In this document: positions 5,733 through 21,660 of the stretch, piece after piece
How the letters are laid out: the number at the start of each line of letters is the position of its first letter
How positions within the stretch are numbered: position 1 is the stretch's first letter
DNA from: Candidatus Bathyarchaeia archaeon
Lineage (GTDB): Bacteria > Patescibacteriota > Microgenomatia > UBA1400
Assembly (NCBI GenBank): GCA_035529355.1
Contig: DATKWX010000008.1
Location: forward strand, 1 to 40,500
DNA length: 40,500 nt
Direction of reading: 5' to 3'
The notes under the pieces: generated by a model
Databases searched by the model: none
What the model saw: only the letters and a program-made list of their open reading frames with translations
What the model was told of the DNA's origin: nothing
Made by a program: the position numbers and the translations under genes

Positions 5733-6050
5733 TTAGGAAAAAAAGAAATAAATGATTAATAAAGCGATAAGAACACCGCTACCGAAAGTAAGGGTAGTGA
5801 TAAGAATAAACTGAATGATTTTGGTTAGCCTTTTGGTTTTAGAACTGCCAAGTTTTCCTTTAATAAACCTTTTTTTTCTGGATTTACCCACCTTCATAAG
5901 GTTTACTAACTGTTTTTCGGTGTAGAAACGGCGGTTGGTTGGCGAACGAAAAGGCTTGATTTCCTTAGTTTTTTCCCATCTTCGTAAAGTATCTCTGGAG
6001 ATGCTTAGGTAACGGCTGGCTTTACCAATGGAAAACCACTTAGTTTTCAT
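5733..6050 (-). CDS. small HTH DNA-binding protein (MerR/excisionase-type) with C-terminal TM anchor
   Basis: 105 aa. N-terminal SIGKASRYLSISRDTLRRWEKTKEIKPFRSPTNRRFYTEKQL is typical of excisionase/MerR-type HTH. It is followed by a basic linker and a C-terminal hydrophobic helix (IIQFILITTLTFGSGVLIALLIIYFFF). Confidence 0.7.
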   Translation of the reverse strand: MKTKWFSIGKASRYLSISRDTLRRWEKTKEIKPFRSPTNRRFYTEKQLVNLMKVGKSRKKRFIKGKLGSSKTKRLTKIIQFILITTLTFGSGVLIALLIIYFFFS

Positions 6051-6150: not shown

Positions 6151-6180
6151 AGGGTCGGACCCTGTCAAGGGTCTGACCCT
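6151..6180. repeat. REP-like palindromic hairpin, copy 1; probable intrinsic terminator of the MerR-like gene on the - strand
   Basis: AGGGTCGGACCCT-GTCA-AGGGTCTGACCCT: 13-nt arms with one G.T wobble. On the - strand it is followed by TTTTCTATTTT. It lies directly after the stop of the 6185-6490 gene. Confidence 0.6.
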
Positions 6181-6184
6181 TTTG

Positions 6185-6490
6185 TCAAATTAACTTTTTG
6201 AGTTTGAAGGAGGGGAAAAGACGGCGTCGGAGTCTTAAGCCGCTTTCTTCAGCAATACTCACTGCTTCCAACAAAAGTTTGACGCCTTTGAGATTTATGC
6301 CTTCTTTTTGGGTGAGGAAAGTAATAAATTGGAGCTGGTTTAAGTCTTCAATAGAAAAGAGGCGTCTGTTAGTGCTTGTTCGGTGTGGTTCAATAAGCCC
6401 GGCTTGTTCATAAAACATTAATGTTCTTGAGTGTAACCCAAGTAGTTTTGCCGCGACTGAGATAGTTAAAATCGGTTCTTTATCAGACAT
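6185..6490 (-). CDS. MerR-family transcriptional regulator, HspR-like
   Basis: 101 aa. LTISVAAKLLGLHSRTLMFYEQAGLIEPHRTSTNRRLFSIEDLNQLQFITFLTQKEGINLKGVKLLLE follows the MerR HTH-wing pattern and the EGINLxGxK motif seen in HspR-type regulators. Confidence 0.8.
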   Translation of the reverse strand: MSDKEPILTISVAAKLLGLHSRTLMFYEQAGLIEPHRTSTNRRLFSIEDLNQLQFITFLTQKEGINLKGVKLLLEAVSIAEESGLRLRRRLFPSFKLKKLI

Positions 6491-6551: not shown

Positions 6552-6985
6552 GATCGAAAAAAAGAGAAATTTTTTTGTGGTAGTTAGTCCGAATAAAAAA
6601 GTAGTCACAGAATAATGCTTTGCTATGTTTGACTTAGATGAAAAACTTATAATAAAATATAAATTTAATATACACAAAAAAAGGTATAAAAATTATAATA
6701 GAATTGAAGACCTATAAATAGTATAAATAATAGTAAATTTGTAATATTAATTAAAAAAACCTTTTTAACAGATTTCTTTTATTGTAGGCGTTAAATCTTA
6801 CTAATTTAGCAACTAAAAGGTTTTTAAAGAGTAAGTTACCACATTTTTATTGCACAAAAAAATTGATCAAAAACATAAAATTAGAATTTAACCCGGAAAA
6901 ACGTTTTATCCTCTAAACTAGAAGTCCATTTATCCTATAGAATTGCTCTTCGCCTGTAAACTGATATTTTTGGTTTTAATCCGCT

Positions 6986-7001
6986 TTTTTCTTGAGAAAA
7001 A
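6986..7001. promoter_or_regulatory. palindromic motif TTTTTCT-TG-AGAAAAA upstream of giant gene 1 (shared with giant gene 2)
   Basis: The 15-mer TTTTCTTGAGAAAAA at 6987-7001 recurs exactly at 15708-15722. Arms TTTTCT/AGAAAA are reverse complements. Confidence 0.35.
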
Positions 7002-7138
7002 TCATTAAAAACAGTAATTAGAAGATAAAGGTAACACTTTATAGAGTAAATTTAATTTCAAGTAAATAATCCGTCACTGACAATGTTTTTTTAGGTTTTT
7101 ATTTATATCTGTTAGGTTGAAAAAATTATAACTAACAC

Positions 7139-7195: not shown

Positions 7196-10100
7196 ATGTC
7201 AAAATTCACTGCCCATGCCAGTAAAGTTATTGAAAAGGTCGCTTTGGGGCGCCTTAAAAAGGCGGAAGCGAGCCGTTTGCTCAAGGTTTCCCGTAAAACC
7301 GTTTATCAGTGGTTAGCCAAATATAAAAAGGCTAGAGAGAATAGGCTTCGCCACGGAAAAAAAAGAGAATTATTTAAACAAGATGTTTTAAGAATTGGTT
7401 TGGCTAATTCCGGCTTCGGACCGAAGAAAATCTCAGAAGAACTTCGTAAAAGAGAAAAATATCTTAGCCCTAAAAGTGTTTGGCTTTTGCTTAAAGATTT
7501 AGATCTGGGGACGCAGAAAAAGCGTTGGAGTTATACTTTCAACTTCAGGAAACCTCAACAGGTCAAAGATGCTAACTTTCCTGGTTATTTAAGGCTCATT
7601 CCGGAAACAAGGAAGCAGCTTTTGGAAGAAGTATTGATTGGAGATGAACCGGTTTCCCATGTCTGTCAGCGCTACCATATTTCCCGAAAGACTTTCTATA
7701 AATGGTTAAAGCGCTACCAAGAGGCACAAGCTAAAGATACGGTTCTTGTAAAGGCCATGGCAGATAACAATCCTTTGGGTTTTGCTCATCCCCGGGCAAT
7801 TTCTGAAGAACTGCAGGAAAAGATACTATATATAGTAAGAGAGCATCCGGAGTACTCGACTCACAAAGTGGCCCAGGTATTAGCTAAAGTAGGTAACCAT
7901 GGGGTGCAAAATGTTTTTCAAAGGTTTAACCTTAGTACCTATGAGAAAAGATTGGTTTACAGCCAAGCTTATCAGCCAGTAACACTGCCTCCTTTTGCCC
8001 GGATCCTGGATTTCCTCAAACCCGTTTTTGGCAGACTGCCTACCTTGTCTGCTATTCCTCCGCCTCTTATAGCTCTATTAGCAAATCTTCTGGTAAAACT
8101 TCGAAGACTTAGTCTGTCTTCTTTAAAAGAGATTAATTTAAAACAGATTAATTTCAAAAAAATCAAGCCTCTTTTACCCTATTCCTTCCTCAGTTTCCTT
8201 GCCGCTGTTGTTTTCTCCTCAGGCTTTATTTACTGGACTAAAATGTTATCTCAGGCTCCCAATCTGAGTGCTAAGATAGGCTTGGTCATGGCCAGCAGCG
8301 CTTTGTTCTTCGGTTCCATCTTCTTTGTCTATTCCCTCAAGTATTACTTTAGCCTCATCCTGGTTTTGTCTTTTTCCCGGCATTCCCCTGAAGAAGGCGG
8401 AGGTCTGAGCATTGCTTTGAATGGGAGGGTTAATGGTAATAGGAATGGTTATGGTAATGGTAGCAGTAATGCTAATGGCAATACTACTATTAATAGTCAT
8501 ACCGGGTTTTTAGGTTTCCTTAAGAAGGTCTTTGGGATTGAGGTTACTGCTAATGGGAATGGAGAAGGCAATGGTTATTCTAATGGTGAAGGTAGTACCA
8601 CCAGCCAAAACCCCAAACAGTCTTTCCTGGAAAATGGCGGAGAGCATCAGGGAAATGGTCTTCAGCCCAACCTTGACCATATCTTTCTTACCCGTCATCC
8701 TTTCATCTCCATCCAGATTCCTTTGTACAACGAGAAGAGAGTAGCCAAAAGAGTCATCAAAGCCTGCATGGCGATGAAGTATGGCCCGGATTGGCCAGAC
8801 CAACCCCAGTTTGAAGTGATTGTTTGTGATGACTCCAATGACGAAACCAGTAAACTCATCTCAGACCTCCAAAGAACCTATGGCAAGGTTAAGGTCATCA
8901 TGGGAGAAGACGGAGAAAAGATCTCCCAGGTCTCAGCCATCGGTAAACCTACCCTCAAGGTAATCCACCGGGAGAACAGGGAAGGTTTCAAAGGCAAAGC
9001 CCTGTCTTATGCCCTCAAATACATGGATTCCCAAACTGAGTTTTGTTGTGTCTTTGATGCTGACTTTGTTCCTTACCCCGATACCCTTACTCAGTTCATC
9101 AAGTATTTCAAAGCCACCGGCGGCTGGGAAGAGAAACAGAGATTTGTAACAGGAAGCATTAGTTCGATACCTTCTGATATATTGGGAAGGACAAGGCTTA
9201 ACCGCAGTCAGGAGCAAGCCTACCAAGTCCAGGAAGCAGGACTTAAGACCAAGTCCAATATCGCCTGTATTGCCGGCTACCAATGGCATGTCTTAAACAA
9301 ATCAGAAAACTGGATTACCCGGGGAGTAAGATCAGAATATGCCGGATCCTACGTCATTGAAAGACCAAGCCAGGAAATCCTGGGCAGTCTAAAACTCATC
9401 CATGGTTCTTCATACTGCATGAGAGCTGATGTCCTAAAGCACTTTGGCTGGGGAACAAGTATCACTGAAGACTTTGAACTTACCCTAAGACTATATGAAA
9501 AAGGCTTCAAGGTTGTCTACACTCCCTATGTCCAAGCTCCGGCTGAGTGTGTGAGTACCATCAAAAGACTCATCAGGCAGAGAATGAGGTGGGCTGAAGG
9601 CCACTCCTTTAATATCAAGAAGATGTTTGGGAGACTGATGTTTGGTAGGTGGCAAGAGCTTCAACCTTGTCATTCTGAATTTATTTCAGAATCTTCTCCC
9701 AAAACCGTCATACTGAATTTATTCCAGCATCTTTTTCATCTTAGAAAGGTAGGGATCCTGAAACAAGTTCAGGATGACGTTGGACGTCAAGTCCAAAGCC
9801 TGTCCCGAATTCATTTCGGGAATGACGCGGTAGAAGGTAGTGCTAGACGCTTCATCCCCAGCCCTCTTACTTTCCCTGAAAAAGTGGAATTCCTTTACTT
9901 ATCTCCCTACTACCTCCAGGCTTTCTTTTTCCTTTTAGGCACCTTTTCCTGGTTAATTGCCGAAACCGTCTTCAAAGCAAGGCTGCCTTTTTGGACAGCC
10001 TTATGGGGTTGGTCTCTGGTTTTGACCAACTTCTTTGCCTTACCTTTGCTTAATGCTGTTGGCCTCTTTCTTGAAGAAGCAGAAGAAAAAGACTATTCAG

Positions 10101-13100
10101 GTTTAGCTTCCTTCATTATCCTTTCCTACATCCTTGTTCCTTTCCAAGCCTATGCTTCGGTTAAAGGCTTCATGGAGAAAAAAGAAGGTCCTTGGTTCAG
10201 AACTCCCAAGACTGGAAAGATTACTGATGTTTTCAAAAGAGGTAGTTTTTATCGCTGGGTATCAGGAATACTGCCGGGAAGGAAACTGCCTTCTTTTGGT
10301 TTCTCTTTTCAGTCCCGTGACCTGGCCCTAAACTACCTTCATGATATTACTACCAGTAACAATCCTTTTAGCAACTTCAGGATCAGAAAAAGACATTACC
10401 GGGGTTTTATGGCAACCATGCTTGTTTTCCTGATCATTTGTTCTTCCACCATCTTCAGCATGCTGCCTTCAGTTCCCCAAAACAAGATTCCCTATGCCCA
10501 GGCTCAGGGACAGCTGGGGATTAGTCCTACATCAGCAGAGAACAAAGACACAGCAGACAATGGGAACACCAAGCTGGCCTTAAACTCCATCCCACCTTCT
10601 GGTAATGGAAAACCACCAGTGATTCTGACAGACAACAGAGAGAAGAATTCAGAATCAGCTCAGACCTACCTGCCCGGCAGGCAGGATTCAGAACTGGAAG
10701 AAACAGCCATGAGCGGGAATCAAACCCCAAGTCTTAAAGTTGAAGAACATAGTCCTGATAAAACTCCCCAGGACTTTTACCTTAAAGTCGTAGATCCTGA
10801 GTCCGCAGAAGGAAATGATAAAGGTAACTTTGTTCCTTACAGACTGACTAAGAAAGACAACACCATTGAAGTAGAAACCAGATCAGAAAAAGGCATCCAG
10901 AAGATAGTGATGGATAAAAACTCAACAGAAGTTAGACTTTATGAAAAAACCACAGCCCCAGACACCCCCGAGGTGAATTCTGCAGACACCTCGGGGGTGA
11001 ATCAGGAAGCAACTGACTTTGTTTTTAAGGCAGTCTCGGTACCTATCTTTGAGTACCTTCCTAATGATCACCTCCAAGGTGATTCTTCCTGGCAGGATTA
11101 CACTCCTTTAGTACCGGGAACTTTATCTTCCCAAGACAATGAGGATTACGCTATAGTAAGGTTAGACTTTGACCTTGTTTCCCAGGATCCCTTTGTTTCT
11201 ATCCCAGCTTCCATAGAACTTAAGATAGGCTACAGCAAAGACCAGGGAAGCATTAACAAACTTTCCTTTAGCCTTCAAGATAATCCTAATACCAATAGAC
11301 TAAGGTGGGAGACTAAGATAATTCAGAATTCACCTGCCAGCAATGCTTCGCCCGCCAGCAATGCTTCGCAAAACGATGCGGGCTGGCAAAGCGAGGCAGA
11401 CGGGGAATTCAGAATTCAGAATGATAATTTCAACCTGACAGAACAAAGGAATGAAGACCTGGAACAGCTTTACCAGGCTTCCATCATAAACCCTCCGCTG
11501 GTAAAACAAGACTTTGATAACCTCAACCTAAACTGGTTTGATTTCTTCAAACAGTATTCCTACCCTCCTTATTTAGGAAACAGCGTCAGGGTAGAACAAA
11601 ACGCAGAGGATAATACCAATACGGTTATCTTTTATCCGGAAGGAAAACCAGGCAGGTTGGAGGTGGACCCGACGGTAACTACGACGGTGGCTGTTTCAAC
11701 AATCACGGTTCAAAGTTCAGACTTTGATAACTCCGGCTCAACAGGTTTCAAGATAATCTTTGACAATACTAAAGGTGGCACCATTGATGAGTTTTACCAT
11801 GATTCAATTGGTGTCGGAGCTACTAATATTGTTTCTGGTAATGCTGTTTATGATGCTTTGTTTGATATTGAATATGATGACGCATATCTTTCTGGTGATG
11901 CGACTGGTTCTTTAACCTTAATTGAAGCTAGCCCCAATAGGGCAGTAGTGAAGGCAGTTGGTAATGTGACTACAAATGATGTAGCGACGATTGACTACAC
12001 CATTTATCCTGATGGTCAAGTTTTTATGAAAGTGGCTTTAGAGATTAAAGACGGAGAAAGGAATGGTGAAGGTGATATGTTCTTTCTGATTCAGGACTAT
12101 GACGGTTATAAAGAAACTTACTCAAGCGTGGATGATACTAACAAAGCGGTTGTTTTATTGCCTGACGCCAGCGGTTTTGATACAGCTTTAATTCCTTACT
12201 CAAGTTCTTATGTGGGAACAGTTGATAACGCTGCCAGTGAAGCTAATGACAATATCATGGTCAAATACGATTCAGCGGCTTCAGGCTATGATGATGAAAC
12301 CACGGTTGAAAGTTACTGGTTTTTGGATCTTTCCGAAAGCGCTTATGATGCCACGCTTTTGACCAACAGAAGAAACGAATACCGGAATTTGGAAAATCCT
12401 GATGTTTTGCAAAACCTAAGTCCGACGGTAGTTTCTCCATCTGATTCTTCACCTCCAATTCAGTTATCAAAAGGCTCAATCCAGGTTGATGTGCCTAACA
12501 GATACCGGGCAGTGATGCAGACAGGGGATACGGAGGACTATATGTTAATCTATGACCGGGCGCAGAATGACAGCAGTCCTCTTAATACTTATGAATTTAT
12601 GGGGCCATATATTTATGAAGATAGTGCTGCCTATATGTTAAGGTATCATAACTTGAGAAAGACAACTATTCTGGAGTCTTCCAGTGTAAGAGTGAGAGTG
12701 AGAGTTGAGGGTTGTTTTGACACTGTCGCCGGCGGCGCCTGTCTCGGCGGGACTGATTTTACGGTGATTGAAGATTACACTTTTACCACCGAAGGCATCT
12801 ATGTTTCCAACATTACCGACTTTAATAGCGGCGGCGTGGCTTTAGATACACCGGGAGCCAATGAAAACGGCTACAACTTCCTGATGATTGATGGTGATAT
12901 TCAGGATGATGCTTTTGCTGGTACTTTATATTACGGAGACGGCAATACCGAAGCTAGTTCAGCTGTAGACGCGACTTTTGAGGAAACTAACATTTATGCG
13001 ACTTTTCCGGCGGTTGACGCTTCCGGCTATCAGTCGGCTATTGTCGGTATCCAAAGAGATGGTTGGCTTGACCAAGCAGGAGGAACAGAAGACTGGCGGA

Positions 13101-15637
13101 TTGATATCGGCGTCGGCACCACCGACCGGCTCCACGCCCGAGAGGGCAATGTTACGCCAACAGGCCTTCTCTATGCCAAATGGTATTTTTTGCTCCAGCC
13201 CGAGAACGACTTGGATGCTGAAGCCGAAAGAGAGAGCTTTAACAACGATAATCGTAATCCCGACACTCTCACTTTTGCCACCGGTAACCAATGGAGTTTT
13301 GAGGACGATTCGGACTTGGAGGGACTGTGGTATATGGAGAGCGATGGCTCAACTGCTGAAACCGATCAATCCACTAGGGGTAATAACTTAACGGTTAGTA
13401 CAGACGACACTATACCGCGAACCACCGATGCCAGAGAAGGAACCTACTCCAGGGATTTTGAAAGAAGTGACACTGATTCTTTAGGTATTGCCGATGCCAG
13501 CCAGAAAGGACTGGATTTTACCGCTGTTTTTACTCTTTCCGCTTGGGTGAATCTTGAAACAAACACAAGCGCAGGCGATATAATTTGTAAAGGCAGTTCC
13601 GGAGTGGCAGCCGTCGGTGCTTACAGTATGTACTACAGCGCTGGAAATGGCCTTGGAGCTAGATTAAGTAATGGAAGCGCTTTTAGCTGGCTTGAAACAG
13701 CAGGATCGGTATTGCCTGATGGAAGTTGGAGTCACGTGGCACTTACTTTCAACGGCGCTACAGTCAGAGCTTATATCAACGGTTCGGAAAACCGGACCGG
13801 CAGTTTTCCGGCAAGTTACGCCAATACGTTAGCCAACAGTTCTTACTATTTTTGTATCGGCGGCACTGGCGGAAGTACAAGTTGTAGTGGAACCTTTGAT
13901 GGTTTAATTGATGAGGCCGCTGTTTTTTCCCGCGTCCTATTCCCTGCAGAAATTGAGCAGATTTATAAAGCCGGAGTCAAAGAACACTACAACGAAGCTG
14001 AAGGAGCTTATACGGTTGACGCTTCAGGTTCGCAGGTGAATTTGGATATTGATGGAGGGAGTAACGCTTCGACAGCTGTTGCGACGACAGCAGTTACGGT
14101 TGGAGTAACCTCTATCACCGTTGGTTCAACCACAGGCTTTCCCGCCGCTCCCAGTCTAGCCTATATTGACGGCGACAAGTTTTCCTATACCGGTACAACC
14201 GCGACTACCTTTACCGGTATCCCTGCCAACGGAGAACTCTCTGTTACCGATCATGCTATCGGCAGCGTGGTTTCTTCTATGAACCGGTACAAGCCTAACT
14301 TTAAAATCCGTAACTACCGCCAAAACAGCAAGCCAAGTTCCGTGACCATGGAAGGAGCCGCGCTGGTTGAAGGCACAAATTATAATGTTGACTATAAACC
14401 GGTCTCCGACGCCTATTTTGCCGATGAGTTGCTTTGGGCTTCGACATTAGAAAGCGCCGCGGTGGTGACTAGTCCAGATATAGGTGGCGCCGGTTCAGAA
14501 TGCGGTACTAAACCGAGCTATACTACTGGGAAGTATGGAAATGGGGTTAAGTTTGATGCCAGTGGTGAATGCCTGTATTTTGCCACTACGGGTAACTTTG
14601 ATAAGGCAAAAGGGGCGATTGAATTTTGGTATAAACCAACATTAGTCTATAGTGATGCAGCAACCCATTATTTTATTCAATTATACCAAGACGCTAATAA
14701 TTACTTCCAATTTTACAAAGCAAGTAGTAACAATTTGATTTTCATAATCGATGCCAGCAGTACTCAAAGTGGTGTTCGAGTTGTAAGCACTAACTATTCC
14801 TGGGCCGCTGGCGATTGGGTTCATTTACGAATCCAGTGGGACGATACTGATCTCAGTACCGAAACCCAGATGAAAATTTACATTAATGGAGTGGAGTCGG
14901 CCCATGATCATCCTGCAGCCAACGACTATAACTCAGCTAATTTGACTCTTCCAACTAATATAGGAATTAGTAATTCTGCTGCTGGACTCCATGCTGATGG
15001 GATTATCGATGAATTTCGCGTCTACGGTGGTGCTGCCGCCACTCCAATTACTCTGGCCGATGGCGGCGATATTGCTGATACTGACGAATATCTTTTTGAC
15101 GAAGAAAATGATTATCAATTAGACTTTGATCCGGTTGATGCTGATGCTACAGAAAGAGGAGAATATCTTTTCTTGGGTGCTGACACGATGTTTGCGGGGG
15201 TTAATATTGATCTAGCTACCAATGGGGCAACAGCCGGAAGCTTGAACCTTGTTTGGGAATACTGGAATGGGTCTTCTTGGGCTGATCTTGAGAGTATCTC
15301 CGGGTTTACTGATGGTACCAGCAACCTCACCACTGATGGAGCGATTTACTGGAATGCCAATCCTACCAACTGGAGGCCATACTCAGTTAATGGCTCAAGC
15401 GATCTTTACTATATCCGTACCTCTCTGAAGGATGATTCGGGAACTTATTCCACTGATCCAATTGAAAACTTTATTAAAACTGATATCCTAATCCTCCAAT
15501 ACCTGAGCAACGTTGTTTCAGACAGCCAGACCTTGGTGGTCGTACCGGAATACCTCTGGCCATTCCTGGCAATCATTCCTTTTATCCCAGGGTTTTTGAA
15601 GAAAAGAAAAAAGGGTCAGACCCTGTTAAGGATCTGA
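7196..15637 (+). CDS. giant multidomain membrane protein: 2x transposase-type HTH modules + processive GT2 synthase + LamG-containing ectodomain + C-terminal sorting signal
   Basis: Uninterrupted 8442-nt ORF. 7196-7960: two HTH+winged-HTH modules of IS630/IS481 N-terminal type (SRKTVYQWLAKYKK; SPKSVWLLLKDLDL; ISRKTFYKWLKRYQEAQ; HPEYSTHKVAQVL) with no DDE domain. About 8170-8390: TM helices. 8408-8670: Asn/Gly linker. 8695-9625: GT2 core with DD 8828-8833, DAD 9056-9064, TED 9464-9472 and QRMRW 9578-9592. About 9630-9860: 71 extra codons absent from the paralog. 9890-10160: TM helices, then PWFRTPKTGK. 10411-10467: TM anchor. 10470-15544: ectodomain with two LamG/ConA-like modules (about 13315-13970 FDGLIDEAAVFSRVL; about 14425-15030 ADGIIDEFRVYGG). 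15545-15634: PEY-TM-KKRKK tail. Confidence 0.85.
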   Translation: MSKFTAHASKVIEKVALGRLKKAEASRLLKVSRKTVYQWLAKYKKARENRLRHGKKRELFKQDVLRIGLANSGFGPKKISEELRKREKYLSPKSVWLLLKDLDLGTQKKRWSYTFNFRKPQQVKDANFPGYLRLIPETRKQLLEEVLIGDEPVSHVCQRYHISRKTFYKWLKRYQEAQAKDTVLVKAMADNNPLGFAHPRAISEELQEKILYIVREHPEYSTHKVAQVLAKVGNHGVQNVFQRFNLSTYEKRLVYSQAYQPVTLPPFARILDFLKPVFGRLPTLSAIPPPLIALLANLLVKLRRLSLSSLKEINLKQINFKKIKPLLPYSFLSFLAAVVFSSGFIYWTKMLSQAPNLSAKIGLVMASSALFFGSIFFVYSLKYYFSLILVLSFSRHSPEEGGGLSIALNGRVNGNRNGYGNGSSNANGNTTINSHTGFLGFLKKVFGIEVTANGNGEGNGYSNGEGSTTSQNPKQSFLENGGEHQGNGLQPNLDHIFLTRHPFISIQIPLYNEKRVAKRVIKACMAMKYGPDWPDQPQFEVIVCDDSNDETSKLISDLQRTYGKVKVIMGEDGEKISQVSAIGKPTLKVIHRENREGFKGKALSYALKYMDSQTEFCCVFDADFVPYPDTLTQFIKYFKATGGWEEKQRFVTGSISSIPSDILGRTRLNRSQEQAYQVQEAGLKTKSNIACIAGYQWHVLNKSENWITRGVRSEYAGSYVIERPSQEILGSLKLIHGSSYCMRADVLKHFGWGTSITEDFELTLRLYEKGFKVVYTPYVQAPAECVSTIKRLIRQRMRWAEGHSFNIKKMFGRLMFGRWQELQPCHSEFISESSPKTVILNLFQHLFHLRKVGILKQVQDDVGRQVQSLSRIHFGNDAVEGSARRFIPSPLTFPEKVEFLYLSPYYLQAFFFLLGTFSWLIAETVFKARLPFWTALWGWSLVLTNFFALPLLNAVGLFLEEAEEKDYSGLASFIILSYILVPFQAYASVKGFMEKKEGPWFRTPKTGKITDVFKRGSFYRWVSGILPGRKLPSFGFSFQSRDLALNYLHDITTSNNPFSNFRIRKRHYRGFMATMLVFLIICSSTIFSMLPSVPQNKIPYAQAQGQLGISPTSAENKDTADNGNTKLALNSIPPSGNGKPPVILTDNREKNSESAQTYLPGRQDSELEETAMSGNQTPSLKVEEHSPDKTPQDFYLKVVDPESAEGNDKGNFVPYRLTKKDNTIEVETRSEKGIQKIVMDKNSTEVRLYEKTTAPDTPEVNSADTSGVNQEATDFVFKAVSVPIFEYLPNDHLQGDSSWQDYTPLVPGTLSSQDNEDYAIVRLDFDLVSQDPFVSIPASIELKIGYSKDQGSINKLSFSLQDNPNTNRLRWETKIIQNSPASNASPASNASQNDAGWQSEADGEFRIQNDNFNLTEQRNEDLEQLYQASIINPPLVKQDFDNLNLNWFDFFKQYSYPPYLGNSVRVEQNAEDNTNTVIFYPEGKPGRLEVDPTVTTTVAVSTITVQSSDFDNSGSTGFKIIFDNTKGGTIDEFYHDSIGVGATNIVSGNAVYDALFDIEYDDAYLSGDATGSLTLIEASPNRAVVKAVGNVTTNDVATIDYTIYPDGQVFMKVALEIKDGERNGEGDMFFLIQDYDGYKETYSSVDDTNKAVVLLPDASGFDTALIPYSSSYVGTVDNAASEANDNIMVKYDSAASGYDDETTVESYWFLDLSESAYDATLLTNRRNEYRNLENPDVLQNLSPTVVSPSDSSPPIQLSKGSIQVDVPNRYRAVMQTGDTEDYMLIYDRAQNDSSPLNTYEFMGPYIYEDSAAYMLRYHNLRKTTILESSSVRVRVRVEGCFDTVAGGACLGGTDFTVIEDYTFTTEGIYVSNITDFNSGGVALDTPGANENGYNFLMIDGDIQDDAFAGTLYYGDGNTEASSAVDATFEETNIYATFPAVDASGYQSAIVGIQRDGWLDQAGGTEDWRIDIGVGTTDRLHAREGNVTPTGLLYAKWYFLLQPENDLDAEAERESFNNDNRNPDTLTFATGNQWSFEDDSDLEGLWYMESDGSTAETDQSTRGNNLTVSTDDTIPRTTDAREGTYSRDFERSDTDSLGIADASQKGLDFTAVFTLSAWVNLETNTSAGDIICKGSSGVAAVGAYSMYYSAGNGLGARLSNGSAFSWLETAGSVLPDGSWSHVALTFNGATVRAYINGSENRTGSFPASYANTLANSSYYFCIGGTGGSTSCSGTFDGLIDEAAVFSRVLFPAEIEQIYKAGVKEHYNEAEGAYTVDASGSQVNLDIDGGSNASTAVATTAVTVGVTSITVGSTTGFPAAPSLAYIDGDKFSYTGTTATTFTGIPANGELSVTDHAIGSVVSSMNRYKPNFKIRNYRQNSKPSSVTMEGAALVEGTNYNVDYKPVSDAYFADELLWASTLESAAVVTSPDIGGAGSECGTKPSYTTGKYGNGVKFDASGECLYFATTGNFDKAKGAIEFWYKPTLVYSDAATHYFIQLYQDANNYFQFYKASSNNLIFIIDASSTQSGVRVVSTNYSWAAGDWVHLRIQWDDTDLSTETQMKIYINGVESAHDHPAANDYNSANLTLPTNIGISNSAAGLHADGIIDEFRVYGGAAATPITLADGGDIADTDEYLFDEENDYQLDFDPVDADATERGEYLFLGADTMFAGVNIDLATNGATAGSLNLVWEYWNGSSWADLESISGFTDGTSNLTTDGAIYWNANPTNWRPYSVNGSSDLYYIRTSLKDDSGTYSTDPIENFIKTDILILQYLSNVVSDSQTLVVVPEYLWPFLAIIPFIPGFLKKRKKGQTLLRI
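9669..9826. mobile_element. cluster of four small palindromic (GTCATTC..GAATGAC family) hairpin units embedded in frame in the giant CDS
   Basis: 9669-9693: GTCATTCTGAA-TTTAT-TTCAGAATC. 9707-9731: degenerate copy. 9755-9778: ATCCTGAA-ACAAG-TTCAGGATGAC. 9802-9826: GTCCCGAA-TTCAT-TTCGGGAATGAC. The segment is missing from the paralog at the homologous position. The same unit family is intergenic at 23913-24002. Confidence 0.6.
11333..11368 (+). repeat. 18-bp tandem duplication (PASNAS x2) inside the giant CDS
   Basis: cctgccagcaatgcttcg / cccgccagcaatgcttcg, 17 of 18 identical. It is flanked by ATTCAGAAT(TCA) repeats at 11321-11332 and 11407-11422. Confidence 0.7.
15545..15634 (+). other. C-terminal tripartite sorting signal (PEY - hydrophobic helix - KKRKK)
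   Basis: PEYLWPFLAIIPFIPGFLKKRKKGQTLLRI. The layout matches PEP-CTERM/PEF-CTERM-type signals. The motif PFIP and the basic cluster are shared with the paralog tail. Confidence 0.55.
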
Positions 15638-15640
15638 CCT
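15612..15640. repeat. REP-like palindromic hairpin, copy 2 (degenerate), containing the stop codon of giant gene 1
   Basis: AGGGTCAGACCCT-GTTA-AGGATCTGACCT. It is followed by CCTAACGAA (15638-15646) and CCCTAACGAA (15652-15661), whose reverse complement flanks copy 4. Confidence 0.55.
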
Positions 15641-15980: not shown

Positions 15981-18900
15981 ATGACTACCAAACTGTCTGT
16001 TCAGCAAAGAATAAGGTTGATAAATAAGGTTACTAAAGAGGGAAGGTCTGTTTCTGAGGTTTGCAAAAAAGCCGGTATTTCCCGTGTCCTTTTTTACCGC
16101 TTACTAAAACGGTATCAGGAAGAGGGAACAGTTAGGCCTAAAAAAAACAAAGGAAAAAGGCCAACCCGGAGAGTCAGCGAAGAAAATGTTATCAAAATAA
16201 TTAGCTTGGTTAAGAAACATCCCCGGTGGTCTTCTCATCAGTTAAGCCAACATGTTTCCACAGGCAATCATGGGGTATGGAATGTTTTAGCCAGGTTGCA
16301 CCTAAATACCGTTAAGAAAAGGGAGTATTTCAGCAAGCAAAGCCGCAATTTAACCTTTGGCCGGTTGCGCAAACTGGCAAGAGGAGAGATTAAAAGTCCC
16401 AAGCCAACAGCTTTAAAACTCAAGGCCAGCAGGCGTTTGGCCATGATTAAGCAAATAGAAGAAGGGCAAAAGCCGGTAGCCCAGGCTTGCCGGGAGTTTG
16501 GTATTTCCCGGCCAGTCTTTTATAAATGGTATCAGCGTTATCTTGAAGCTCCGAGAGGGCAGAAATTGGTGGCCATGAAAGATAAAGAACGGAAAATTGA
16601 ACGCTTTAGCCGCCAGATTCCGGTTAAATACGAAAAAGCGGTGTTGCAGGCAGTGGTTAGGCATCCCGAATACGGGATTAAGAAAATAATGGTTTGTTTA
16701 CCCCAAATAGCGGCTAAGCCAATTGTAGGTTATCATGGCGTTCAGCGGGTTTTGGAAAGGAATAAACTAAACACTTATGAGTTGAGAAAAGCTTATGCTC
16801 AAACTCAGCTAACTCCCGTCATTAGAATCATTAGCATTCTTGAAGATAGCTTTGCCAAAATAGCTTACCTACCTCTTCTTGTCAGACAGAAATTTATCAT
16901 ATTAGGCAGTCTTGCGGTCTTTTCCTGCTTTTTGACCGTGGTAGGATTGGGAGCCTTAGGCTACTTTGGCAGTTTACTAAAACAAGTGCCAGGAAATGCT
17001 AAAATTGGTATTATTTTGGCTGGTAACGCCTTGGTTATTGGTTCAATCTTTTTTTGCTACTCTTTAAAGTACTATTTTAATTTGGCTTTAGTGCTTTCTT
17101 TTTCCAGGCATTCTCCGGAAGAAGGCGGAGGTCTAAGCCTATCCTTAAATGGGATAGTAAATAACAACAGGGCGGGTAATGGTAAAGGCAACGGTAAGCC
17201 TGGGTTTTTAGGTTTCCTTAAAAAGGTCTTTGGGGTTGACCTAGGCGCTAATGAGGGCGGTAACGGTTTTAAGAATGGCAAAAAGACATTTTTAGGTAAT
17301 GGTTTACGAATGCAGGATGGTGGTTTACAGATTAATATGGAGAGGATTGACCTTAACCGTCATCCTTTCATTTCCGTCCAGATCCCTTTGTACAATGAGA
17401 AGAGAGTAGCCAAAAGAGTCATCAAGGCCTGCATGGCCATGAAGTATGGCCCTGACTGGCCAGATAAACCCCAGTTTGAGGTAATCGTTTGTGATGACTC
17501 CAATGATGAAACCAGTAAACTCATCTCAGACCTCCAGCAAACCTATGGCAAGGTTAAGGTAGTTAGGGGAGAAGACGGAGAAAAGATCTCCCAAGTCTCA
17601 GCCATCGGTAAACCTACCCTCAAGGTAATCCATCGGGAGAACAGGGAAGGTTTCAAAGGCAAAGCTTTATCTTATGCCCTGAAGCACATGGATCCTCAAA
17701 CCGAGTTTGTTTGTGTCTTTGATGCTGACTTTGTTCCTTACCCCGATACCTTAATCCAGTTTATCAAGTATTTTAAGGCTACCGGTGGCTTTGAAGAAAA
17801 ACAGAGTTTTGTAACAAAGAATATTAGTTCGATACCATATGATATATTGGCAAGGAATAATCCACAGGGAAATACCAACCTAACCAGAGATCAGAAGCAA
17901 GCCTATCAAACCCAGGAAGCAAGACTTAAGAACAAGTCCAATATAGCCTGTATTGCCGGCTACCAATGGCATGTCTTAAACAAATCAGAAAACTGGATTA
18001 CTAGGGGAGTCAGATCAGAATATGCCGGATCCTACGTCATTGAAAGACCAAGCCAGGAAATCCTAGGCAGTTTAAAGCTTATCCATGGCTCTTCATACTG
18101 CATGAGAGCTGATGTCCTAAAGCACTTTGGCTGGGGTAGTAGTATTACTGAAGACTTTGAACTTACCCTAAGACTATATGAAAAAGGTTTCAAGGTTGTC
18201 TACACTCCCTATGTCCAAGCTCCGGCTGAGTGTGTGAGTACCATCAAAAGACTGGTTAGACAGAGAATGAGATGGGCTGAAGGCCACTCGTTTAATATCA
18301 AGAAGATGTTCTGGTTGCTGATAAAAAGTCCAGGGATGAACTTAATGGAGAAAACAGAGCTTTTATATTACACACCCTATTACCTCCAGGCATTTTTATT
18401 TTTAGTTGGCACTTTTTCCTGGTTGTTGGCAGAAACCGTCTTTAAAGCCCATCTGCCTTTCTGGACCTCACTTTGGGGTTGGAGTCTAATTTTGACCAAC
18501 TTTTTCAGCCTGCCTTTACTTAATGCCGTGGGTTTATTCCTTGAGGAAGCGGAGGAAAAAGATTATTCAGGCCTGATTTCCTTTATTATCCTTTCCTACA
18601 TCCTTGTTCCTTTTCAAGCTTATGCTTCGGTCAAAGGATTCCTGGAGAAAGAAGAAGGTCCCTGGTTCAGAACTCCCAAGACTGGAAAGATTACTGATAT
18701 TTTTAAAAGAGGTCAATTTTACCGTTGGATAGCAGGAATTTTGCCCAGGCGGGAACCAGCATTGCAAGGAGTGATGGGAAGCGGCTTGGTTCCTGCTTAT
18801 GCTTATCAGCAAAACCCTTATTTGGTCCGGCAAACAGCCACAGGCTGGTTTAACAATTTTCGCGTCCAACCCAAGCGTTTGCGTTGGGTTTCAAAAATGG

Positions 18901-19595
18901 CCTTGTCTCTTTTACTGGCTTTTTCCGTGACTCTTTTAAGTTTAAGTCAAGGGGTAAGAGAAGTTCAGGCAAGCCCTTGGAACAATTTATACTTACATGA
19001 AGATAATGGGGTATGCAGCACTTTGGATACCATGACGACTTCAGTCGGAACAACAGGCCAACAGCAAATAGTGATTTCCGCCTCAAATACGGGTCCTTTT
19101 AACTGGTATTCAAACTCCTTGCCTACCGGTACTCTTGATGCTTCAACAACCGCTGGCAACTGGAATTTCCATTGGGAGGGAGTATTTTATGCTGCCGCTG
19201 GTGGAGCCAAGGTGGTACTTAATATTGTGATTAGTTTGGTTGATGCTTCAGATTGTAGCAGCAGTGCCGATAATTTATATAGCGGAACTTACCAGTTTAG
19301 CTCCAATGGTCCGATAACGATTACTACTGCTGTTCCAGCACGAACAATCACTACGGCTGCTCCCAAAAGAGTCAGGTGGCAGACTTCTTGGAGTAGTACC
19401 AATAAGGCCGGTTCGACAATGAGCATTAAATACAATGATACGGTGGTCAGTGGTTTTGATTCCAATCTTCAGCCAGCGACTTTAACGATTCCGGAAAGAC
19501 TAGTTTTACTGCTGGTGGTAGCGCCCTTTATTCCCATACTTGCAAGTTGGCTTAAGAAGAAAAGAGAAAAGGGTCAGACCCTTGACAGGGTCTGA
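15981..19595 (+). CDS. paralogous multidomain membrane protein: 2x HTH modules + processive GT2 synthase + short ectodomain + C-terminal sorting signal
   Basis: 1204-aa ORF. 15981 to about 16800: two HTH modules (GISRVLFYRLLKRYQEEG; GISRPVFYKWYQRYLEAPRG; HPEYGIKKIM). TM helices and an NG linker follow. 17361-18300: GT2 core nearly identical in DNA to copy 1, with QRMRW at 18261-18275. More TM helices and PWFRTPKTGK follow. 18897-18955: TM anchor. The ectodomain is about 180 aa. 19491-19592: PER-TM-KKKREK tail. Confidence 0.85.
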   Translation: MTTKLSVQQRIRLINKVTKEGRSVSEVCKKAGISRVLFYRLLKRYQEEGTVRPKKNKGKRPTRRVSEENVIKIISLVKKHPRWSSHQLSQHVSTGNHGVWNVLARLHLNTVKKREYFSKQSRNLTFGRLRKLARGEIKSPKPTALKLKASRRLAMIKQIEEGQKPVAQACREFGISRPVFYKWYQRYLEAPRGQKLVAMKDKERKIERFSRQIPVKYEKAVLQAVVRHPEYGIKKIMVCLPQIAAKPIVGYHGVQRVLERNKLNTYELRKAYAQTQLTPVIRIISILEDSFAKIAYLPLLVRQKFIILGSLAVFSCFLTVVGLGALGYFGSLLKQVPGNAKIGIILAGNALVIGSIFFCYSLKYYFNLALVLSFSRHSPEEGGGLSLSLNGIVNNNRAGNGKGNGKPGFLGFLKKVFGVDLGANEGGNGFKNGKKTFLGNGLRMQDGGLQINMERIDLNRHPFISVQIPLYNEKRVAKRVIKACMAMKYGPDWPDKPQFEVIVCDDSNDETSKLISDLQQTYGKVKVVRGEDGEKISQVSAIGKPTLKVIHRENREGFKGKALSYALKHMDPQTEFVCVFDADFVPYPDTLIQFIKYFKATGGFEEKQSFVTKNISSIPYDILARNNPQGNTNLTRDQKQAYQTQEARLKNKSNIACIAGYQWHVLNKSENWITRGVRSEYAGSYVIERPSQEILGSLKLIHGSSYCMRADVLKHFGWGSSITEDFELTLRLYEKGFKVVYTPYVQAPAECVSTIKRLVRQRMRWAEGHSFNIKKMFWLLIKSPGMNLMEKTELLYYTPYYLQAFLFLVGTFSWLLAETVFKAHLPFWTSLWGWSLILTNFFSLPLLNAVGLFLEEAEEKDYSGLISFIILSYILVPFQAYASVKGFLEKEEGPWFRTPKTGKITDIFKRGQFYRWIAGILPRREPALQGVMGSGLVPAYAYQQNPYLVRQTATGWFNNFRVQPKRLRWVSKMALSLLLAFSVTLLSLSQGVREVQASPWNNLYLHEDNGVCSTLDTMTTSVGTTGQQQIVISASNTGPFNWYSNSLPTGTLDASTTAGNWNFHWEGVFYAAAGGAKVVLNIVISLVDASDCSSSADNLYSGTYQFSSNGPITITTAVPARTITTAAPKRVRWQTSWSSTNKAGSTMSIKYNDTVVSGFDSNLQPATLTIPERLVLLLVVAPFIPILASWLKKKREKGQTLDRV
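19491..19592 (+). other. C-terminal tripartite sorting signal (PER - hydrophobic helix - KKKREK)
   Basis: PERLVLLLVVAPFIPILASWLKKKREKGQTLDRV. It shares (V/I)PE-x-L, PFIP and a Lys-rich cluster with the 15545-15634 signal, although the two ectodomains are unrelated. Confidence 0.55.
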
Positions 19596-19598
19596 CCC
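19571..19598. repeat. REP-like palindromic hairpin, copy 3, containing the stop codon of giant gene 2 and lying 5' of the RAYT gene
   Basis: GGGTCAGACCCT-TGAC-AGGGTCTGACCC, a 12-bp perfect stem. The loop TGAC is the reverse complement of the copy 1 loop GTCA. Confidence 0.65.
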
Positions 19599-19615: not shown

Positions 19616-20275
19616 ATGCCCAGAAAGAATGTGGTGAAAATTTACGTTGAAGACGGCTATTACCATCTCTATAACAGAGGTGTAGAGAAAAGAGTGATTT
19701 TTAGCGACAAAAGGGATTATAAAACTTTCCTTTACTTTTTAAAAAGCTACCTCACACCTGTGCCAAAAAAGATTCCTCCTTTTGACAGGCGGCAAGTAAG
19801 GAGTTTATCAAAGGATATTGATTTGCTTGTTTACTGCCTTATGCCTAACCATTTCCATTTATTAGTTAAACAGAAAAGCGAAAGGGGAATAACTAAATTT
19901 ATGCGCGCCTTATGTACTAATTACGTGATGTATTTTAATCAAAGGTATCAGCGTTTGGGAGGTTTATTTCAAAGTGCTTATAAAGCGGTTTTGGTAGAAA
20001 CTGATGAGCAACTATTGCATCTTTCCCGGTATATTCATTTGAATCCATCAGAATTACTTGGGAAACATCAATTATTAGAAGATTACCTTTATTCAAGCTA
20101 CGATGACTATATGGGAAAAAGAAAGACAAATTGGCTTAAAACAGAAACGATTTTGGATTATTTTAAAACTGCTCGTAAAACCAGCCTTAATGATTTTCTT
20201 TCTTATCAAGGTTTTGTGGAATCTTATAAAGAAGACGAGAAGGAATTCAGTTTTAAAGGAGTAACGTTAGAATAA
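19616..20275 (+). CDS. REP-associated tyrosine transposase (RAYT; IS200/IS605-like Y1 HUH transposase)
   Basis: 219 aa. YHLYNRGVEKRVIF; HUH motif in LVYCLMPNHFHLLVKQ; GGLFQSAYKAVLV with the catalytic-type Tyr; LSRYIHLNP. The gene is bracketed by REP hairpins at 19571-19598 and 20297-20330. Confidence 0.85.
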   Translation: MPRKNVVKIYVEDGYYHLYNRGVEKRVIFSDKRDYKTFLYFLKSYLTPVPKKIPPFDRRQVRSLSKDIDLLVYCLMPNHFHLLVKQKSERGITKFMRALCTNYVMYFNQRYQRLGGLFQSAYKAVLVETDEQLLHLSRYIHLNPSELLGKHQLLEDYLYSSYDDYMGKRKTNWLKTETILDYFKTARKTSLNDFLSYQGFVESYKEDEKEFSFKGVTLE

Positions 20276-20296: not shown

Positions 20297-20330
20297 TTAG
20301 GGTCTGACCCTGTTAAGGGTCAGACCCTAA
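20297..20330. repeat. REP-like palindromic hairpin, copy 4 (3' of RAYT)
   Basis: TTAGGGTCTGACCCT-GTTA-AGGGTCAGACCCTAA, a 15-bp perfect stem. The central A-T pair is flipped relative to copies 1-3, which preserves pairing. The 5' flank TTCGTTAGGG is the reverse complement of CCCTAACGAA next to copy 2. Confidence 0.65.
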
Positions 20331-20340
20331 CATAGGAAAA

Positions 20341-21660
20341 ATGCCATTTAAGCGTCCGAAAAAAGAAGAAACCTTAGCCAAAAAAGCAGTCAAAAGAAAC
20401 TATCGTCTTTTTTTTAACAACCGGCTTATGACAATTTTACCCCGGTGGTGGGTAGGGACAGCAGAGATTTTGGGTTTAACGCTTCTTTTTTTGCTAAACT
20501 TCCTTTTGCTTTTGCCCTTTTTTGGCCAGGAAGATAAGTCTAATATTTTTTCTGCGCCCTTAATCCCGGTTTTAAGTAAACTGTTTTTTTTAATGTCTTT
20601 TCCCGTGGCAATTCGTTTTTGGTTGCTGTTTTTTATTCTTTTTCTGCCGGTTACGTTCTATTTTTTTGTCCGGGAGATTTCCGGCCGGAGAATAACGGCT
20701 TTTTTGGCCTCCTTGATTATTAGCTTGCCGTTGGGCATTTTTCTACCTTTAAGATTAAAACTGGCTCTTTTTACTGAAGACGGCAACCATATTGCTTCCT
20801 TGACTTTAGGCATTTTAGCTTGCTTGTTTTTGTTAAGATTTTTGCGCAGCGGTAATTTTAAAATGGGTGTAAGTTCCAGCTTACTTATAAGCCTGGTGGC
20901 TTTAACTTCGCCTTTGGGGTTGTTTATCCTCGGCTGTTTTAGCTTGGCGATTAGTTTTTCCGAGATGCTTTTAAGTCAAGGAAGATTAAAGTTTTTCCGT
21001 TTTTTAACGGTTTTTATGCTGGCTGCGGGATTAGTATCTTTTTGGTACAATCCCGGTTTTGTTTTTCTGATTGTTGCTTCACCCCAAGGAGAGTTGATAA
21101 AAGGAACTTTGGCCAGTTTGTTCCCTTTGTCCTTTTTTTTGGTGCCTTTGCTGGGCGCTTTCGGTTTTTTGCTTTTTGAAAACCGTCCTCGCCTCCAACC
21201 GCTTTTTTTAGCCGTGTTTTTAAGCATTGGTTTTGGCCTTTTGTCTTTAGGCGCTGGCATGCAACTTTCCAGCCCCTACCGTTTTTTGCCCAGTTTAGGG
21301 ATGGCTTTGGCCTTTTTAGGAAGCATTGTCCTGGCAAGAATTTTTGATTTTTTGAAAAGAAGGCGCAGTTTCCGGCAGTTTAGCGGCATAAGCCGATACA
21401 GAAAACAGATTTTGTTTTTCTCAATTACTTTGTTTTTTACCATCATTACTTCTATTATTATGGCTTCAGCTAAAAATTTCGGACAACTGGAGCAAGAAGA
21501 GGTTTTAGGCTTGGTTGACTCCAAAACAACGGGAATTTGGGAGGCTAGGAACGCTATTGGCTGGTTTCACCACATTATAGGTGGTAGCATTAGTTTTTCG
21601 ACCGCAGGTTTGCTTATCTTTATCAGAAAACAGCTTGCTAAGCAAAAAAATGAGGAATAA
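20341..21660 (+). CDS. polytopic integral membrane protein (possible polymerase/GT-C-like; unassigned)
   Basis: 439-aa ORF, hydrophobic throughout (more than 10 predicted helices) with a basic N-terminus. It is the first gene of a same-strand, overlapping gene string. Confidence 0.6.
   Translation: MPFKRPKKEETLAKKAVKRNYRLFFNNRLMTILPRWWVGTAEILGLTLLFLLNFLLLLPFFGQEDKSNIFSAPLIPVLSKLFFLMSFPVAIRFWLLFFILFLPVTFYFFVREISGRRITAFLASLIISLPLGIFLPLRLKLALFTEDGNHIASLTLGILACLFLLRFLRSGNFKMGVSSSLLISLVALTSPLGLFILGCFSLAISFSEMLLSQGRLKFFRFLTVFMLAAGLVSFWYNPGFVFLIVASPQGELIKGTLASLFPLSFFLVPLLGAFGFLLFENRPRLQPLFLAVFLSIGFGLLSLGAGMQLSSPYRFLPSLGMALAFLGSIVLARIFDFLKRRRSFRQFSGISRYRKQILFFSITLFFTIITSIIMASAKNFGQLEQEEVLGLVDSKTTGIWEARNAIGWFHHIIGGSISFSTAGLLIFIRKQLAKQKNEE

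Follow-up and report, generated by a model that had tools for sequence, protein, structure and literature searches.

Two large open reading frames (ORFs), hereafter called ORF A and ORF B, end in the same kind of short C-terminal tail in a 40,500-nt stretch of DNA, hereafter the window (positions 1 to 40,500 of the forward strand of contig DATKWX010000008.1, NCBI GenBank assembly GCA_035529355.1, from Candidatus Bathyarchaeia archaeon; GTDB lineage Bacteria; Patescibacteriota; Microgenomatia; UBA1400). Each tail is probably the tripartite recognition and cleavage signal of a dedicated 181-aa enzyme of the exosortase/archaeosortase family, which is encoded at 3556-4101 of the same window. Tail and sortase together are a new dedicated variant of the exosortase and C-terminal-signal type, most unusual in that the tagged surface domain is fused to a processive-type glycosyltransferase of family GT2. 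Judged from sequence, the same pairing of tail and sortase is found repeatedly among uncultured bacteria of the Microgenomates and in a few further phyla. The initial annotation of the window had proposed that the tail is a C-terminal sorting signal under selection of its own and tied to the 3556-4101 gene, a proposal that is supported by gene linkage and by conservation of the tail independently of the ectodomain preceding it. The principal features are:

7196-15637, + strand: ORF A, 2813 aa (assigned from Pfam and NCBIfam domain matches, hydropathy and paralogy to ORF B)
10409-10465, + strand: internal signal-anchor transmembrane (TM) helix of ORF A, MATMLVFLIICSSTIFSML, hydropathy 2.15, where the ectodomain starts
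15539-15613, + strand: functional core of tail 1, VV-PE-YLWPFLAII-PFIP-GFL-KKRKK, 38.9 bits with a tail model built from other genomes
15981-19595, + strand: ORF B, 1204 aa, the canonical short form of the GT2-fusion family
19485-19571, + strand: functional core of tail 2, TI-PE-RLVLLLVVA-PFIP-ILASWL-KKKREK, 40.1 bits with the same model
3556-4101, + strand: exosortase/archaeosortase-family protein, 181 aa, polytopic, 33.1 bits with TIGR04178 (cutoff 23)

ORF A begins with two transposase-type helix-turn-helix (HTH) domains. Next come two or three TM helices and a GT2 domain that bears the processive-synthase motif QRMRW, and a conserved TM module, with PWFRTPKTGKITD at its end, leads to the signal-anchor helix, the ectodomain and the tail. 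ORF B is made up of the same parts in the same order, with its signal-anchor at 18888-18944 and an ectodomain of ~180 aa. The signal-anchor of ORF A lies between RIRKRHYRG on its N-terminal side and ..YAQA|QGQ on its C-terminal side, and the equivalent segment is kept in homologs with an E-V-x-A-(T/S) motif behind it. Tail 1, PEYLWPFLAIIPFIPGFLKKRKKGQTLLRI, is encoded by 15545-15634 at the end of ORF A, with the stop codon at 15635-15637; tail 2, PERLVLLLVVAPFIPILASWLKKKREKGQTLDRV, is encoded by 19491-19592 at the end of ORF B. The sequences and coordinates of both tails had been given exactly in the initial annotation. Each tail is laid out as (V/I)-P-E, a hydrophobic stretch of ~16-19 residues, in which P-F-I-P occupies +11 to +14, and then a Lys/Arg cluster. 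Counted from the P of P-E as position 0, the prolines stand at +11 and +14 in both tails and the basic cluster starts at +18 in tail 1 and +21 in tail 2. Basic residues lie ahead of the signal-anchors (RIRKRHYRG and KRLRW) and behind the tail helices (KKRKK and KKKREK), a positive-inside pattern that fits an exported ectodomain with a membrane helix at each end.

The resemblance of the two tails exceeds chance. A six-frame scan of the window found the tripartite pattern in ORF A and ORF B alone. With a hidden Markov model (HMM) of 53 tails from other genomes, from which the window was excluded, ORF B scored 40.1 and ORF A 38.9 bits (independent E-value, i-E, ~1e-11 to 1e-12), and the next best of the 340 window ORFs scored 4.6 bits. 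A search of a 5.8-billion-protein database with the tail profile (alignment A3) returned eight short C-terminal fragments of Chloroflexi type, the word index and the E<=10 limit of that search being ill-suited to a 35-residue motif.

The anatomy of the motif was derived from 57 non-redundant tails anchored on P-E, a pair that the search pattern required. Valine or isoleucine precedes it in 53 of the 57. The six commonest residues at +2 are N (20 tails), R (9), K (6), Y (5), A (5) and F (4), without proline among them; the window tails read PEY and PER. Positions +3 to +10 are hydrophobic, proline is present at +11 in 33/57 and at +14 in 39/57, and the basic cluster begins at +18 or +21. In a set of 14 homologs chosen for their similarity over the whole region, P-E never varies (14/14) and both prolines are at least 90% conserved. 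The possibility that the invariance of P-E was an artefact of the search pattern was ruled out by this independent set and by a pattern-free extension of GT2-module ORFs. Of the shared motif as first described, (V/I)-P-E is sharply conserved, and the internal "PFIP" is better written as P-x-x-P, present in ~60-70% of the 57 tails and in at least 90% of the closer relatives. Rare variants of the motif are S-E in the second ORF of locus L078 (loci are cited by our own L numbers) and I-P-I-N in locus L119. In the latter (L119:328-1632) the tail of the GT2 fusion, ..NWIPINIWVILPSIPFIIWFIRKRKKK, lacks P-E, yet two tandem sortase genes lie behind it; the signature motif may thus have a naturally occurring variant here.

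The gene at 3556-4101 encodes the presumed processing enzyme of the tails, a function assigned by analogy with its family. The TIGR04178 match spans residues 82-171, and all 16 homologs aligned with it (alignment A1, 58-76% identity) match the model too. Residues C87, R132 and H152 are invariant across these 16 homologs, and the window enzyme thereby has the invariant Cys, Arg and His stated as the criterion for EpsH (PMC1569441), a set of residues that would suit a transpeptidase. Four TM segments were predicted by hydropathy, and an AlphaFold2 model was mostly helical (predicted local distance difference test, pLDDT, 77). Homologs numbered 394 in a large protein database and, where named, belonged to Microgenomates, Gottesmanbacteria or Patescibacteria. 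No cutoff of an Xrt or Art subfamily was reached by the window sortase, the best scores being 17.3 bits for XrtK (cutoff 55) and 13.3 bits for XrtM (cutoff 125), and the latter score places it outside XrtM. XrtM (TIGR04300) is the closest named exosortase subfamily by score: 13 of the 16 homologs match it weakly (best E=3e-8), far below its cutoff, and their matches to ArtC, XrtX, XrtT and pacearchaeosortase are weak as well. There was no Pfam match at E<=0.01, no match of the sortase profile to PDB sequences at E<=1, and nothing better than E=1 when the AlphaFold2 model was compared with the PDB by Foldseek. A second sortase gene in the window was sought by tblastn and discounted, 3556-4101 alone being found. 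A tblastn search with the window sortase and 15 homologs as queries matched a metagenome contig (L090, Ga0111213_119) at 100% identity; there the sortase gene is followed, as in the window, by a gene like that at 4279-5715, and contig and window probably stem from one population or from two that are very close.

The co-occurrence of tails with homologs of the 3556-4101 gene, which the initial annotation had put forward as a check, was examined from both sides, with counts covering up to 10 kb on either side of each anchor. On the sortase side, 80 loci were taken from 170 relatives in GTDB species representatives, their hosts being Gottesman-, Woese-, Curtiss-, Levy-, Davies- and Chisholmbacteria and some Chloroflexi, Dormibacterota and Bathyarchaeota. 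Complete or near-complete genomes with the system include CP011214.1 (Woesebacteria, 819 kb), OY970314.1 (983 kb) and CAVPHZ010000001.1. Upstream DNA was available for 75 loci, and in 48 of them a tail ORF on the same strand ended no more than 1500 nt before the sortase start, mostly across a gap of 0-100 nt. The tail pattern, defined as (V/I)-P-E followed by a hydrophobic stretch and a basic cluster, was present in 49/247 sortase-adjacent ORFs versus 15/3862 others (Fisher p=9e-49), and of the latter 15 about nine are likewise genuine tails, situated at other places in these loci. On the GT2 side, the conserved TM module (alignment A4) was used as the query, and 79 metagenome loci were taken from at least 509 relatives. 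Among 61 non-redundant GT2-module ORFs that reach a stop, the tail was recognized in 52 by pattern and in 6 by eye (~58/61). A sortase gene starts between -22 and +1500 nt past the GT2-fusion stop in 41 of the 57 ORFs with at least 700 nt of downstream DNA, and lies somewhere in the locus for 51 of the 57. Half of the 41 gaps are no longer than 10 nt and several of the gene pairs overlap, an overlap of stop and start that argues for a functional pair. Pattern-free extension of GT2-module ORFs in the genome loci gave the same picture. Linkage thus holds in both directions (48/75 and 41/57), in agreement with the proposal. One or two carriers stand beside a sortase gene in each locus examined.

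The ectodomains of the two carriers in the window had been described as unrelated. That description stands, but the proteins as wholes are related. ORF A and ORF B are paralogous from residue 1 to ~1090, with 53% identity overall and a mostly identical GT2 core, and their tails are for that reason not on independent proteins. Behind the last internal TM helix, ~1700 aa follow in ORF A and ~180 aa in ORF B, the sizes previously estimated being upheld by hydropathy. The claim that the two ectodomains lack detectable similarity was likewise borne out: BLASTP was significant only at the tail (E=4e-6), the next segment having E=0.74. Remote homology, which that segment had raised as a candidate, was not supported by a profile search in which an HMM of 48 short-form ectodomains matched ORF A only at the linker (E=1.6e-3) and the tail (i-E 1.8e-6). 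Laminin_G_3 matches were obtained for two stretches of the ORF A ectodomain. By their sequences, the two ORFs are tandem paralogs whose ectodomains have been swapped.

Two further peculiarities of the paralogs were observed. An in-frame insertion of ~70 aa, missing in ORF B, lies in ORF A at ~9638-9850 (residues ~815-885), between QxxRW and the TM module; its DNA contains several short palindromes of type GATCCTGAAACAAGTTCAGGATGAC and translates as ..HSEFISESS..ILNLFQHL..ILKQVQDD... The insertion resembles a small mobile element, rich in hairpins, that left the frame unbroken. The N-terminal HTH domains (7196-8020 in ORF A and 15981-16850 in ORF B; matches to HTH_28, HTH_23 and HTH_29) resemble the N-terminal regions of IS481-, IS630- and IS3-like transposases, in both ORFs fused to a membrane GT2. 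The HTH-GT2 fusion is kept in many Microgenomates homologs and is missing in members from Chloroflexi and Dormibacterota and in those of the L050 type. Membrane-tethered DNA binding is a possible function of this fusion.

Across the family, between ~230 and 2535 aa follow the TM module, the mode being ~270-290 aa (ORF B, with 244 aa, lies near it), and the sequences are unrelated while the tail is kept; the profile of the short forms matches the long forms at linker and tail only. The expectation that the signal would be spread over unrelated proteins was not upheld, as the tail is almost always borne by one family of GT2-synthase fusions with a hypervariable ectodomain. Nearly every complete carrier includes the GT2 domain and TM module, and this near-confinement to a single family indicates a dedicated system. 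In four loci (L003, L013, L025 and L057) the tail ORF is without GT2, which lies directly upstream in another frame or ORF. Proteins without GT2 also occur. A Bathyarchaeota protein (L065), encoded directly ahead of a sortase gene, starts with a signal peptide, contains two repeats and ends in a VPEL tail, and in L073 the tail is carried by a 425-aa protein with two TM helices. In L078 ORF2 a sortase domain is itself fused to an ectodomain and tail. The presence of the tail on these GT2-free proteins shows it to be portable, and this favours a recognition signal over a structural helix specific to the synthase.

The L078 fusion is of interest in its own right. A single ORF (L078:5081-6469, Bathyarchaeota contig QMXQ01000033.1) encodes an exosortase-family domain (ISWNCVGWQS..NLLR..FHDH), a TM helix, an ectodomain and the S-E tail, so that enzyme and substrate are in one polypeptide, and a second, stand-alone sortase gene is located at 6573-7109. 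The cassette is also often present in two to three copies per contig or genome (L036, L040, L108, L120, L135, L150, L116, L119 and L127), and several metagenome-assembled genomes hold two to three separate cassette loci. Each copy has its own sortase paralog and a different ectodomain, which suggests diversification of a surface-protein repertoire.

Exosortases and archaeosortases have been described as Cys endopeptidases that act on signals composed of a motif, a TM segment and basic residues (PMC11980579; PMC1569441). We infer the topology, cleavage, transfer and acceptor in the present system as follows, with cleavage and transfer proposed by analogy with that family (PMC11980579). The carrier would be a single polypeptide in which a cytoplasmic processive-type GT2 synthase sits on its TM module. 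The internal signal-anchor helix would export the variable ectodomain, and the tail helix would re-insert with its Lys/Arg cluster kept in the cytoplasm, an orientation that would put (V/I)-P-E at the outer membrane face. There the sortase, through Cys87 with Arg132 and His152, would cut at or near P-E, remove the helix and basic cluster, and transfer the C-terminus so formed to an acceptor, which would be a membrane lipid or a glycan made by the locus. The E-V-x-A-(T/S) motif behind the signal-anchor (AQA|QG in ORF A, 10409-10501; VQA|SP in ORF B, 18888-18980; alignment A5) resembles a signal-peptidase I site, here inside a polytopic protein, and the fusion may accordingly be processed to give a synthase and a separate surface protein; going by this conserved V/A-x-A site, signal peptidase may free the ectodomain from the synthase. 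Given the GT2 fusion, the glycan of the locus itself is an attractive, though unproven, candidate for the acceptor. A more specific version, in which the exosortase joins the C-terminus of the ectodomain to the nascent polysaccharide, or a lipid-linked intermediate, made by the GT2 domain of the same polypeptide, is speculative and on balance rather improbable. If it were true, each cassette would be a self-contained builder of a protein-glycan surface conjugate and would offer the first direct handle on the acceptor of an exosortase.

Several points weigh against tail recognition and cleavage by the 3556-4101 enzyme. Cleavage is proposed by analogy for every member of the system. The number of substrates per genome and the tail-free state of sortase-free genomes were gauged only locally, within the 10 kb on either side already mentioned. 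In the window itself the sortase gene is 3 kb upstream of ORF A and adjacent to neither ORF A nor ORF B, a membrane-protein gene, two MerR genes and a repeat of the type described below separating it from ORF A, and one sortase would have to serve two substrates. An AlphaFold2 model of the C-terminal 325 aa of ORF B (13 homologs) had a pLDDT of 47.8 and was unfit for a fold search; its secondary structure, which is indicative, consists of an all-beta ectodomain and a helical tail. Lastly, nearly all carriers belong to one family, so that conservation of the tail could reflect a structural role in that family.

This last point leads to the strongest of the alternatives, in which the tail is a conserved structural TM helix of the GT2-synthase family that re-anchors the ectodomain loop, packs on the TM module and is never cleaved, the neighbouring exosortase homolog acting on another target or non-proteolytically in glycan export. 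Such a role is compatible with the finding that complete carriers beside Microgenomates sortase genes all have the GT2 domain and TM module, or have them split off immediately upstream, and with a system that is dedicated rather than multi-substrate and whose processing is inferred. The layout of the tail, however, is exactly that of a sortase signal (a motif, a short hydrophobic stretch containing proline and a basic cluster), and its best-conserved element, V/I-P-E, lies outside the membrane span, where helix packing would not select for it. The tail also persists on the GT2-free proteins of L065 and L073 and where the ectodomain is a separate ORF (L003, L025 and L057), and the stop of the carrier gene may overlap the start of the sortase gene. 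A purely structural helix is for these reasons considered unlikely, and recognition of the tail by the sortase remains the preferred interpretation.

The tails were compared with known sorting systems. The two window tails gave no match at E<=10 to the NCBIfam and Pfam sorting-signal models, in keeping with the earlier suggestion that they belong to no named signal class. When 49 tails of the family were compared with the same kind of model, the best matches were to MYXO-CTERM (3 tails, E=0.0013) and the PEP-CTERM model TIGR02595 (3 tails, E=0.0096). Single marginal matches were obtained to PTPA-, Heimdall-, PFE- (E=0.054) and GlyGly-CTERM and to LPXTG, and two to Synerg-CTERM; PEF-, PGF-, PEFG- and Firmicu-CTERM were absent from the matches of the 49 tails at E<=10. 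For LPXTG and sortase A, the single match was to TIGR01167 (1/49 tails, E=0.81), and the window tails have no LPXTG motif. In current annotation the carriers are named "hypothetical protein" and the sortases "exosortase/archaeosortase family protein". Our literature search found no paper joining exosortases with Microgenomates, Patescibacteria, the candidate phyla radiation or Chloroflexi.

Of the known systems, that of XrtG comes closest in its logic. The XrtG cassette of Firmicutes comprises one Firmicu-CTERM protein, XrtG and two associated GT2 proteins (PMC12854382, a paper on XrtG of L. plantarum). Like it, the window-type system is a compact dedicated cassette of bacteria without an outer membrane, with one exosortase, one or two tagged proteins and one or more GT2 enzymes; unlike it, the GT2 and the tagged protein are one polypeptide and the motif is (V/I)-P-E...P-x-x-P. 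ORF B scored 20.5 bits with the model of the XrtG-associated glycosyltransferase (TIGR03111, cutoff 364), XrtG itself (TIGR03110) was not among the sortase matches at E<=0.1, and Firmicu-CTERM was, as noted, missing from the tail matches. Another precedent for an exosortase-linked GT2 is the XrtP-associated glycosyltransferase (NF053846), to the C-terminal part of which ORF B matches with 42 bits (E=4.7e-11). The difference here is that the cutoff is 520 bits, the alignment covers ~90 residues round QxxRW, and the sortase has no XrtP match. The archaeosortase ArtA and its PGF-CTERM signals (with PEF and PEFG) share the enzyme superfamily and the tripartite logic with the window system, and differ in the signature motif and in the substrates, those of ArtA being secreted proteins, S-layer proteins among them, that carry N-terminal signals. 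For ArtA there is experimental support for cleavage at the C-terminus and for attachment of a lipid, and the exact cleavage site and the lipid are still unclear (PMC11980579).

A second alternative is that the tail is an ordinary PEP-CTERM/XrtA signal that has diverged beyond the reach of the models. PEP-CTERM signals, as described in 2006, consist of a Pro-Glu-Pro triad, a TM region and a basic segment, and they occur on many substrates with signal peptides (median 8 per genome), only in bacteria with an outer membrane (PMC1569441). XrtA (EpsH) and the window sortase belong to one homologous enzyme superfamily; in both kinds of signal P-E comes first, the two residues being common to the triad, and is followed by a TM stretch and a C-terminal basic cluster; polysaccharide-synthesis genes adjoin, the window locus being as rich in glycan-synthesis genes as PEP-CTERM loci are (PMC1569441); and, as given above, three of the 49 family tails match TIGR02595 weakly. 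The TM stretch and basic cluster of the definition (TIGR02595 / PF07589) are thus present in the window-type tails, but the triad and the HMM match are not: the third proline is lacking, proline being outside the six commonest residues after P-E in the 57 tails, and the window tails are unmatched at E<=10. An extra P-x-x-P at +11/+14 is not a listed feature of the 2006 description. The enzyme, of 181 aa, is much smaller and falls below every Xrt subfamily cutoff. By locus-level counts, the window-type sortase has one or two substrates, which are fused to a synthase and exported by an internal signal-anchor behind the GT2 module, not many proteins with N-terminal signal peptides, and its hosts are Patescibacteria, Chloroflexi, Dormibacterota and Bathyarchaeota rather than bacteria with an outer membrane. 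On these grounds a diverged PEP-CTERM signal is regarded as very unlikely.

Part of the similarity between the two tails has an origin in the DNA. A repeated hairpin of the form GGGTCAGACCC-loop-GGGTCTGACCC, like a repetitive extragenic palindrome (REP), occurs in four copies in the window, and a Y1 transposase gene resembling a REP-associated tyrosine transposase (RAYT) accompanies it:

6153-6178: REP-like hairpin, GGGTCGGACCC tgtcaa GGGTCTGACCC
15614-15639: REP-like hairpin, supplying the GQTLLRI codons and the stop of ORF A
19572-19597: REP-like hairpin with a 12-bp perfect stem, supplying the GQTLDRV codons and the stop of ORF B, and forming the left flank of the Y1 gene
19616-20275, + strand: IS200-like, RAYT-like Y1 transposase (PF01797, 41.8 bits), with inverted REP hairpins on either side
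20301-20326: REP-like hairpin, the right flank of the Y1 transposase gene

The hairpin 9-mer, with one mismatch allowed, has 20 matches versus 3.4 expected. The arrangement is that of a REP/RAYT system, with a Y1 transposase between two hairpins of opposite orientation and more copies dispersed nearby. In ORF A as in ORF B, the final seven codons and the stop lie inside hairpin copies. The shared "GQTL" and stop codons are hairpin-encoded, and that part of the tail similarity is accordingly at the DNA level and not at the protein level; the protein-level signal ends at KKRKK in ORF A and at KKKREK in ORF B. The tandem paralogy of the two ORFs and the REP-derived last seven codons of both could be taken to mean that the whole similarity is a by-product of recent duplication or gene conversion plus a shared REP insertion, but this is scarcely credible, since the DNA of the two tail cores looks diverged when read side by side, the motif is kept across a GT2-fusion family whose TM modules are 40-87% identical to that of ORF B and which includes members from Chloroflexi, Dormibacterota and Bathyarchaeota, and the window-excluded HMM still gives both tails ~40 bits.

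The other genes near the tails are:

4279-5715, + strand: polytopic membrane protein, 478 aa, a recurrent partner in the cassette
20341-21660, + strand: polytopic membrane protein, 439 aa, a recurrent partner in the cassette, in other genomes usually encoded directly behind the sortase gene
5733-6050 and 6185-6490, - strand: two small MerR-family regulators with a REP copy between them, divergent, between the sortase and 4279-5715 genes on one side and ORF A on the other

Neither polytopic membrane protein has a Pfam or NCBIfam match. Homologs of the 4279-5715 protein were present in 62/159 loci, usually adjoining the GT2-fusion or sortase gene, and those of the 20341-21660 protein in 41/159; in 10 of 64 sortase-anchored loci the latter start 19-821 nt past the sortase gene. 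Both are probably further components of the system, for example a glycan polymerase, flippase or ligase. The usual order elsewhere is GT2 fusion, sortase, 4279-5715-like gene and 20341-21660-like gene (for example in L024 and L058). The order in the window is sortase, 4279-5715, the two MerR genes on the minus strand, REP, ORF A, REP, ORF B, REP, RAYT, REP and 20341-21660. On this gene order the window holds a rearranged cassette, and REP copies are found at each junction.

The remainder of the window forms an island of glycan-synthesis genes with a GH39 gene, an epimerase, four GT4 genes, four methyltransferases, PMT_2 and a fusion of GT2 with radical SAM and SPASM domains. This last ORF (28563-30371, 602 aa) is an unusual fusion, and a 1075-aa ORF at 33163-36390, among the GT4 and methyltransferase genes, has no Pfam match.

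Exosortases are widespread, and the steps past signal recognition are unsettled, namely where cleavage takes place, what serves as acceptor and whether the long-suspected link to exopolysaccharide holds. The window-type clade represents a minimal case, with an enzyme of 181 aa, one or two substrates encoded beside it, and the substrate fused to a processive-type GT2. Being small and genetically defined, this system could be reconstituted in a heterologous host for the study of cleavage and acceptor. For annotation, a model of the tail and a model of the sortase subfamily can be built from the present alignments. For the Microgenomates, members of the candidate phyla radiation, the cassettes point to a set of hypervariable envelope proteins in which ectodomains of ~100-150 to more than 2000 aa are presented on a constant scaffold of synthase and tail.

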